Part shown: positions 8,039 through 8,358 of the stretch, in pieces
How positions within the stretch are numbered: position 1 is the first letter of the stretch
Layout of the letters: each line of letters begins with the position of its first letter
Assembly (NCBI RefSeq): GCF_013315695.1
Contig: NZ_CP054353.1
Direction: 5' to 3' (one strand)
Origin: Escherichia coli
Lineage (GTDB): Bacteria > Pseudomonadota > Gammaproteobacteria > Enterobacterales > Enterobacteriaceae
Length of the DNA: 64,000 nucleotides
Translations under genes and position numbers: made by a program
Notes under the pieces: model-generated
What the model was told of the DNA's origin: nothing
The model's input: only the letters and a program-made list of their open reading frames with translations
The model's database searches: none

Positions 8039-8358
8039 TATCGAATCGTTATTATGTGCAGGTGATTCGGCAGTCTATATCAGTTGTTAAAAATGACAAC
8101 TTTTCATTAACTGTTATCAAACCATCACCAGCGATAACTCCTTGCCTAGCGCATTAGCCGCGAGCTGGACGGCGTCGATTTTTTTACCTCCGTGTGTAAT
8201 GTGCTCGAAAATAGCACTAAATCGCCGCAACGGCAGAATGCTATGCAAAATCAGGAAGGAAGATTCCAGAATTTCTTTGCGCTAATTTGCAAAACTGAAT
8301 AATAACCTCAAGAAACGATCGGCATCATAGCGTCAAAAGGTTAGAAAAAGGTGGCGGG

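Follow-up and report, generated by a model that had tools for sequence, protein, structure and literature searches.

A remnant of the chromosomal hicAB toxin–antitoxin operon in the ydcR–yncJ spacer of Escherichia coli

The short spacer that separates ydcR from yncJ in the window (by which we mean the whole 64,000-nucleotide stretch of Escherichia coli DNA analysed here) is, we conclude with high confidence, the relic of a chromosomal hicAB type II toxin–antitoxin operon, left in place by a deletion internal to the module. The locus is a hicAB relic at the orthologous site, and not a functional HicAB system, an empty site or the product of a precise excision. Such a relic is already known in kind, as RefSeq annotates a pseudogene here, lineage-specific loss of hicAB has been published, and the process is ordinary gene decay. 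The locus nonetheless offers a tidy example of chromosomal toxin–antitoxin decay, in which a short spacer turns out to be a stump rather than an empty site.

Layout of the ydcR–yncJ spacer

The spacer covers positions 8039–8358 of the window (320 bp), from the end of the ydcR start codon at 8038 on the minus strand to the yncJ ATG at 8359 on the plus strand, and the locus is 100% identical to that of E. coli strain MS 21-1. Its coordinates and gene order are as originally predicted, as is the lack of any ORF of HicA or HicB size: the ORFs internal to the spacer encode 43, 47 and 36 aa, against 58 aa for HicA and 138 aa for HicB. The position assigned to hicA and hicB in K-12, between yncJ and ydcR, was likewise right, the same flanks in K-12-type strains lying 938 bp apart, with hicB (417 bp) and hicA (177 bp) between them on the strand of ydcR and ydcR as the downstream neighbour of hicB. 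The features of the window locus are as follows.

6632..8038, minus strand: ydcR, intact, gene for a MocR/GntR-type PLP-dependent aminotransferase-family regulator (468-aa ORF; annotated as ydcR in MS 21-1)
8039..8116, minus strand: native ydcR–hicB spacer, 78 bp, K-12 length kept (alignment columns 40–117, colinear in all states)
8099..8072, minus strand: sigma-70-like site, candidate for serving ydcR (consensus match only)
8117..8183, minus strand: hicB 3′ remnant, last 21 codons (KIDAVQLAANALGKELSLVMV) and stop codon (BLASTP, tBLASTn, DNA alignment, RefSeq pseudogene)
8179..8185, no strand: deletion junction, run of 7 T (alignment columns 184–801 gapped in the window)
8184..8269, minus strand: residual hicA-upstream DNA, ~86 bp, specific to hicAB-bearing Escherichia (colinear with the K-12 yncJ–hicA spacer)
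8270..8358, plus strand: upstream region of yncJ itself (blastn, conserved across Enterobacteriaceae with or without hicAB)
8359..8589, plus strand: yncJ (DUF2554), intact (Pfam PF10829, E 2e-51; annotation; rlhA/ydcP next)

The division of the yncJ side into two parts comes from blastn, in which homology of the yncJ-upstream DNA to the loci of Citrobacter, Enterobacter, Leclercia and Kluyvera starts at query position 87–93 (~8270). As homology with genera that lack an adjacent hicAB starts at this point, 8184–8269 is read as hicAB-specific leftover and 8270–8358 as the yncJ promoter region. Within the latter part lies a direct repeat, TTTGC-GCTAA-TTTGC (TTTGC-N5-TTTGC; 8276–8290, 83 nt upstream of the yncJ ATG), that does not vary across Escherichia, E. 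albertii included, and has related sequences in other genera. Read on its other strand the repeat (GCAAA-N5-GCAAA) resembles the CpxR box, GTAAA-N5-GTAAA, and would be a putative site of this kind. The yncJ gene has been assigned to the CpxR iModulon (PMC7657598). A conserved sequence, TTTGCGCTAATTTGCAAAA, was considered as a CRP-S candidate and rejected, as it sits in the part of the yncJ-upstream DNA that is homologous to genera without hicAB beside yncJ.

The hicB remnant and the missing parts of the module

Coding sequence of hicB persists in the spacer. HicB residues ~118–138 are encoded in frame at 8120–8182 on the minus strand (BLASTP and tBLASTn against K-12 HicB), and 20 of these 21 residues, with N/K at the variant position, are identical to K-12 HicB (95% amino-acid identity). 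The translation of 8117–8248 (minus strand) aligns by BLASTP to K-12 HicB residues 98–138 (E 9e-12), and tBLASTn with HicB, in which the remnant is matched from residue 114 or 118 to residue 138, gives E 5e-8 against the 64-kb window. The original prediction implied that tBLASTn would recover neither gene from 8039–8358; against this interval alone the same search finds hicB at E 5e-11, while K-12 HicA as query finds nothing there and reaches a best E of 1.3 in the 64-kb window. In all, ~66 nt of the spacer are hicB-derived coding DNA. RefSeq places a 78-bp pseudogene here (‘HicB family antitoxin, incomplete, missing N-terminus’), both in MS 21-1 and in strain CE10, and its PGAP bounds (8117–8194) extend ~11 nt beyond the true junction. 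The predicted absence of hicAB is thus correct for functional hicA and hicB genes and incorrect for hicB coding DNA.

The remnant lies at the orthologous site in its original orientation, and hicB ends 78 bp from ydcR as it does in K-12. What survives of HicB is only the tail of the helix-turn-helix domain, most of which has been lost together with the entire N-terminal domain that binds HicA; an antitoxin gene with a PF15919 N-terminal domain and a C-terminal DNA-binding domain is not present (full-length HicB matches both PF15919 and HTH_3). A toxin gene with the HicA_toxin domain PF07927 is also absent from the locus, the K-12 HicA control matching this family. Neither toxin nor antitoxin can be encoded by the locus.

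Anatomy of the deletion

A base-level alignment was made of the window with UTI89, a K-12-type strain and O104:H4, to which further alleles were added later. Relative to the K-12-type sequence the window carries a single gap of 618 bp (columns 184–801), and the sequences to either side are colinear and 97–98% identical. The window, UTI89, K-12-type and O104:H4 sequences align colinearly through the 78-bp ydcR–hicB spacer and the final ~66 nt of hicB, and the window resumes at TTTACCTCCGTG after the gap. The 618 bp that are gone held hicB codons 1–117, the hicA–hicB spacer and the entire hicA gene along with its ribosome-binding site (GGGAGG). Also lost were a −10-like hexamer, TATACT, and, of the palindrome GTAAAC-ATTAGT-GTTTAC, both the left arm and the spacer. 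At the junction, the seven T are made up of 4–5 T from hicB codons 117–118 and 2–3 T from the right palindrome arm, GTTTAC, and the microhomology amounts to 1 nt (T). Set against K-12 hicAB (yncN–ydcQ), the window therefore shares the site between yncJ and ydcR, the orientation, 20 of 21 hicB codons and the colinear upstream DNA, and differs in lacking hicA, hicB codons 1–117, the probable P2 −10 and the left palindrome arm.

The palindrome lies at 2488–2506 of the K-12-type sequence (L003), 8 nt upstream of the TATACT hexamer that precedes hicA. Its arms are conserved and its spacer is variable (GTAAAC-N6-G(T/C)TTAC) across the Escherichia and Citrobacter hicAB loci compared: those of E. coli, E. 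whittamii, Escherichia sp. E1V33, the strains E69 and SCPM-O-B-8794, and two Citrobacter species. From this spacing a transcript start would be expected at about the hicA ribosome-binding site. The promoters P1 and P2 and the operator were reportedly mapped by Turnbull and Gerdes in 2017. Reviews describe P2 as a HicB-repressed promoter whose transcript is truncated at the hicA ribosome-binding site, and P1 as a Sxy/CRP-S-dependent promoter farther upstream (PMC7167474, PMC8138530, PMC11594946). As the expected start matches this description of P2, the palindrome is probably, by its position and conservation, the HicB operator of P2, and the TATACT hexamer is the probable −10 of that promoter. 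The upstream promoter P1 would then lie in the stretch corresponding to 8184–8269. No autoregulated promoter and operator remain in the window, which keeps of the palindrome only TTTAC of the right arm (8183–8187).

The position of these endpoints bears directly on whether a mobile cassette was excised by site-specific recombination, leaving an att-like scar. Nothing specific speaks for such an event, which had been suggested by how short the spacer is. The endpoints fall inside hicB and inside the palindrome, whereas comparison with Citrobacter and other genera bounds the module at the hicB stop codon and at ~8270; no direct or inverted repeat is found at the junction beyond the single T, and no integrase or transposase gene is adjacent, so that we give precise excision almost no credence. 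The att-like scar that was to be looked for by alignment with K-12 and with strains lacking hicAB is likewise not there, with no direct repeat flanking the junction, and the ‘clean loss’ that had been proposed is a loss, but not a clean one, as module DNA is left at both ends of a deletion with internal endpoints. Slippage between direct repeats was also considered as a sufficient cause of this deletion, or of the 445-bp deletion described below, and was rejected, only 1 nt of microhomology being present at each junction.

The history that we favour instead is a simple one. An ancestor of this lineage (phylogroup F-type strains such as CE10 and MS 21-1) would have carried hicA–hicB between yncJ and ydcR in a K-12-like arrangement; illegitimate recombination with minimal homology would then have removed 618 bp from inside the module, whether at once or in stages; and the product would be the non-functional stump seen today, consisting of the last 21 hicB codons, ~86 bp of hicA-upstream DNA and the T7 junction between them.

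Outgroups and the true empty site

Outgroups were surveyed by a YncJ scan of one genome per species, followed by tBLASTn with five local proteins. An intact hicA–hicB pair occupies the yncJ–ydcR interval of E. whittamii, of Escherichia sp. E1V33 and of the divergent ‘E. coli’ strains E69 and SCPM-O-B-8794, and the presence of intact hicAB at the same site in these outgroups indicates that the module is older than E. coli.

The spacer of E. albertii NBRC 107761 (L011, 3193–3500) resembles that of the window in size (~308 bp), in lacking hicA and in holding only debris of hicB, and differs from it in its fragments and endpoints. It is made up of four fragments of the K-12 module, with 17 nt and 20 nt from the 3′ part of hicB and 55 nt from its 5′ end, and three deletions have shaped it. 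As its deletion endpoints are unlike those of the window, the E. albertii stump is an independent case of hicAB decay.

Citrobacter has two additional genes, of 467 and 336 aa, between yncJ and the position of ydcR and hicAB, and its species differ: two carry hicAB (sp. NCU1 and Awk 4), and C. amalonaticus is without it. In C. amalonaticus the homology to the ydcR-side spacer of E. coli ends exactly at the hicB stop codon, with zero hicB sequence beyond. Judged by this comparison, C. amalonaticus is a genuine unoccupied site, and the window is unlike it: ydcR has no adjacent hicAB in either, and only the window holds hicB-derived bases. A further sequence, AACTGTTAT, is found at the empty-site junction (C. 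amalonaticus L015/L052, ~660–831) and on the far side of the module where the site is occupied (L017/L045, 1–812). It may be an insertion-site repeat, the NCU1 and Awk 4 sequences compared reaching only into hicB.

These states leave practically no room for an ancestral empty site, as originally proposed, in which the lineage of the window never had hicAB and K-12-type strains gained the module by insertion. Such a history would account for a short spacer without gene-sized ORFs, and the presence or absence of hicAB beside ydcR among Citrobacter species does imply that the module moved at a deeper time. However, the spacer contains 66 nt of in-frame hicB and hicA-upstream DNA that includes part of the right palindrome arm; other Escherichia species have intact hicAB at this place; and the true empty site of C. 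amalonaticus shows none of these traces. The module may therefore be called mobile, as had been suggested, only on the deep timescale of its presence or absence among Citrobacter species: within Escherichia it keeps its place and disappears by deletion.

Allele states among complete E. coli genomes

Allele states were counted in 5,426 complete E. coli genomes, the flanks being found in 5,416, with the window junction counted by a 68-bp probe at an E-value limit that required a contiguous match. The 618-bp-deletion junction of the window occurs in 61 of the 5,426, from several hosts and sources, among them CE10 (ST62 of phylogroup F according to PMC11537424). The state of the window is not an assembly artefact, given an identical junction in 61 independent complete genomes. 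Far more common is the UTI89-type junction (1,093/5,426), at which a deletion of 445 bp leaves 237 bp of hicB, and the 445-bp segment of hicA and 5′ hicB is present in 4,256 genomes. An earlier study reports that phylogroup B2 has lost hicAB (bioRxiv 10.1101/486399).

Presence of the segment does not mean that hicA is intact, as a deletion of 22 bp inside hicA is carried by at least 811 of the 5,426 genomes, all among the 4,256. This deletion (between 2313 and 2314 in O104:H4, L004; removing 2314–2335 of the K-12-type L003) is flanked by a 4-bp direct repeat, CGCA, and leaves hicB intact, and PGAP annotates hicA as frameshifted. At the other extreme is GmF046 (L006, 1996–2058), which has a K-12-like left flank and combines the 445-bp deletion with a further deletion of 144 bp, flanked by CCTT microhomology, that removes the 3′ end of hicB: a third-stage decay allele.

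All of the degraded alleles have hicA disrupted, either by the 22-bp frameshift or by deletions that take hicA together with part of hicB, and among the degraded alleles examined none has an intact hicA beside a broken hicB. In the decay of toxin–antitoxin pairs, loss of the toxin gene with or before the antitoxin is the expected order and the only viable one, and the fact that hicA is always hit matches this order. With ~37% of complete E. coli genomes lacking an intact hicA at this locus, caution is warranted in generalizing the hicAB phenotypes of K-12.

One deletion or two

The 618-bp allele of the window and the UTI89-type pseudogene are both internal deletions of hicA and the 5′ part of hicB, and their promoter-side endpoint is the same nucleotide. 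They share a related flanking haplotype and encode an identical YncJ protein (WP_000491567.1), and they differ in the hicB sequence kept (237 bp in UTI89, ~66 bp in the window) and in frequency (1,093 against 61 genomes). Over ~1.9 kb on each side, the flanks of the window diverge by 2–3% from the UTI89 type and the K-12 type about equally, which favours neither a one-step nor a two-step loss.

We lean modestly towards a decay in two steps, in which a UTI89-type deletion of 445 bp (hicA and 5′ hicB) would have been followed by a deletion of 173 bp that took most of the remaining hicB. The spacer and hicB remnant of the window are one site removed from a 445-bp-deleted allele of the UID26/NC101 type, and over the same region four sites removed from N3, the nearest full-length allele among those sampled. 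This route is harder to reconcile with the right flank of the window, which lacks a T at column 872 that both sampled UTI89-type alleles carry; with the existence of full-length alleles that have window- or UTI89-like flanks (8 genomes, with N3 and MS14384 as the examples examined); and with the coincidence of a second deletion stopping at the old junction.

A single deletion of 618 bp from an intact module, independent of the 445-bp event, would have ended at a structure-prone hotspot, the palindrome that is the probable HicB operator, and we regard it as a serious contender that falls somewhat short of an even chance. The two deletions can be placed so that they share an end nucleotide, directly 5′ of TTTACC in the right palindrome arm, and this hexamer has its exact reverse complement, GGTAAA, at the start of the 445-bp deleted segment. 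The full-length alleles with similar flanks and the missing T at column 872 also speak for a single step, as does an identical 445-bp junction on a second, unrelated haplotype, the AST20 type (28 genomes), which is closest to full-length alleles, a pattern that fits recurrence. Yet the hicB remnant of the window is nearest to a 445-bp-deleted allele (1 SNP) and not to the full-length alleles sampled (4 SNPs), the left end of the 618-bp deletion is without an inverted-repeat partner, so that the hairpin idea does not cover it, and the AST20 pattern can be explained in other ways.

The AST20 allele (L055, 198–434 and flanks; the 28 genomes include O166:H15) has 445-bp endpoints identical to those of UTI89 (L002), and to within 19 bp of the junction its hicB remnant and flanks match the full-length allele of MEW (L057) and not UTI89. 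Its deletion could reflect hotspot recurrence, an old polymorphism or a very short conversion tract.

More generally, three alleles (the 445-bp deletions of UTI89 and AST20 and the 618-bp deletion) stop at the same nucleotide, and we raise as a tentative and rather doubtful proposal that the palindrome upstream of hicA is a recurrent deletion endpoint. If it is, the module would have a built-in fragile site that favours the loss of hicA and of the HicA-binding half of hicB in one step. A shared endpoint at a probable operator palindrome is in any case a small and mildly new lead on deletion mechanisms.

Possible residual function and other elements of the window

The in-frame junction creates a chimeric ORF of 43 aa (8117–8248, minus strand) with a TTG start, and the hicA-upstream DNA that is retained now faces ydcR across the stump. 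The remnant might on these grounds have been kept for a function, either because the upstream promoter region now drives ydcR or because the 43-aa ORF is expressed, and the allele is indeed stable in 61 genomes from several hosts and sources. A terminator scan of 7900–8700 returned no terminator-like sites, so that none separates the hicA-upstream region from ydcR, and read-through is for this reason conceivable: transcription from the retained upstream DNA could, going by these predictions, extend into ydcR. A scan for consensus promoters picked up a single weak site, on the ydcR side of the spacer, and no counterpart of P1, which depends on CRP and Sxy and about which such a scan says little. 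Nothing new would be gained by such read-through, however, as the hicAB transcripts of K-12-type strains would already face ydcR through a 78-bp spacer in which no terminator-like site was found, and the stability of the allele is accounted for by shared descent. The chimeric ORF has no Pfam match and no Shine–Dalgarno sequence upstream of its TTG. Retention for function is in our judgement very improbable. With the HicA-binding domain and most of the helix-turn-helix domain gone, no recognizable ribosome-binding site and no Pfam match, we infer that the remnant is without function.

Structured RNA was absent from the spacer in an Rfam scan of 7000–9500 at E <= 1. Directly downstream of yncJ, the scan gave a sub-threshold naRNA4/REP-like match (8590–8629, minus strand; 31.6 bits, gathering score 59.5), which is probably an ordinary REP element. 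Elsewhere in the window, Rfam matches above the gathering score were obtained for the sok antitoxin RNA of a hok/sok locus (23451–23602), RydC (24162–24225), MicC (48469–48584) and RalA, the antitoxin RNA of RalR (63647–63825). The sok and RalA matches indicate that the RNA parts of the other two toxin–antitoxin loci of the window, unlike hicAB, are still recognizable.
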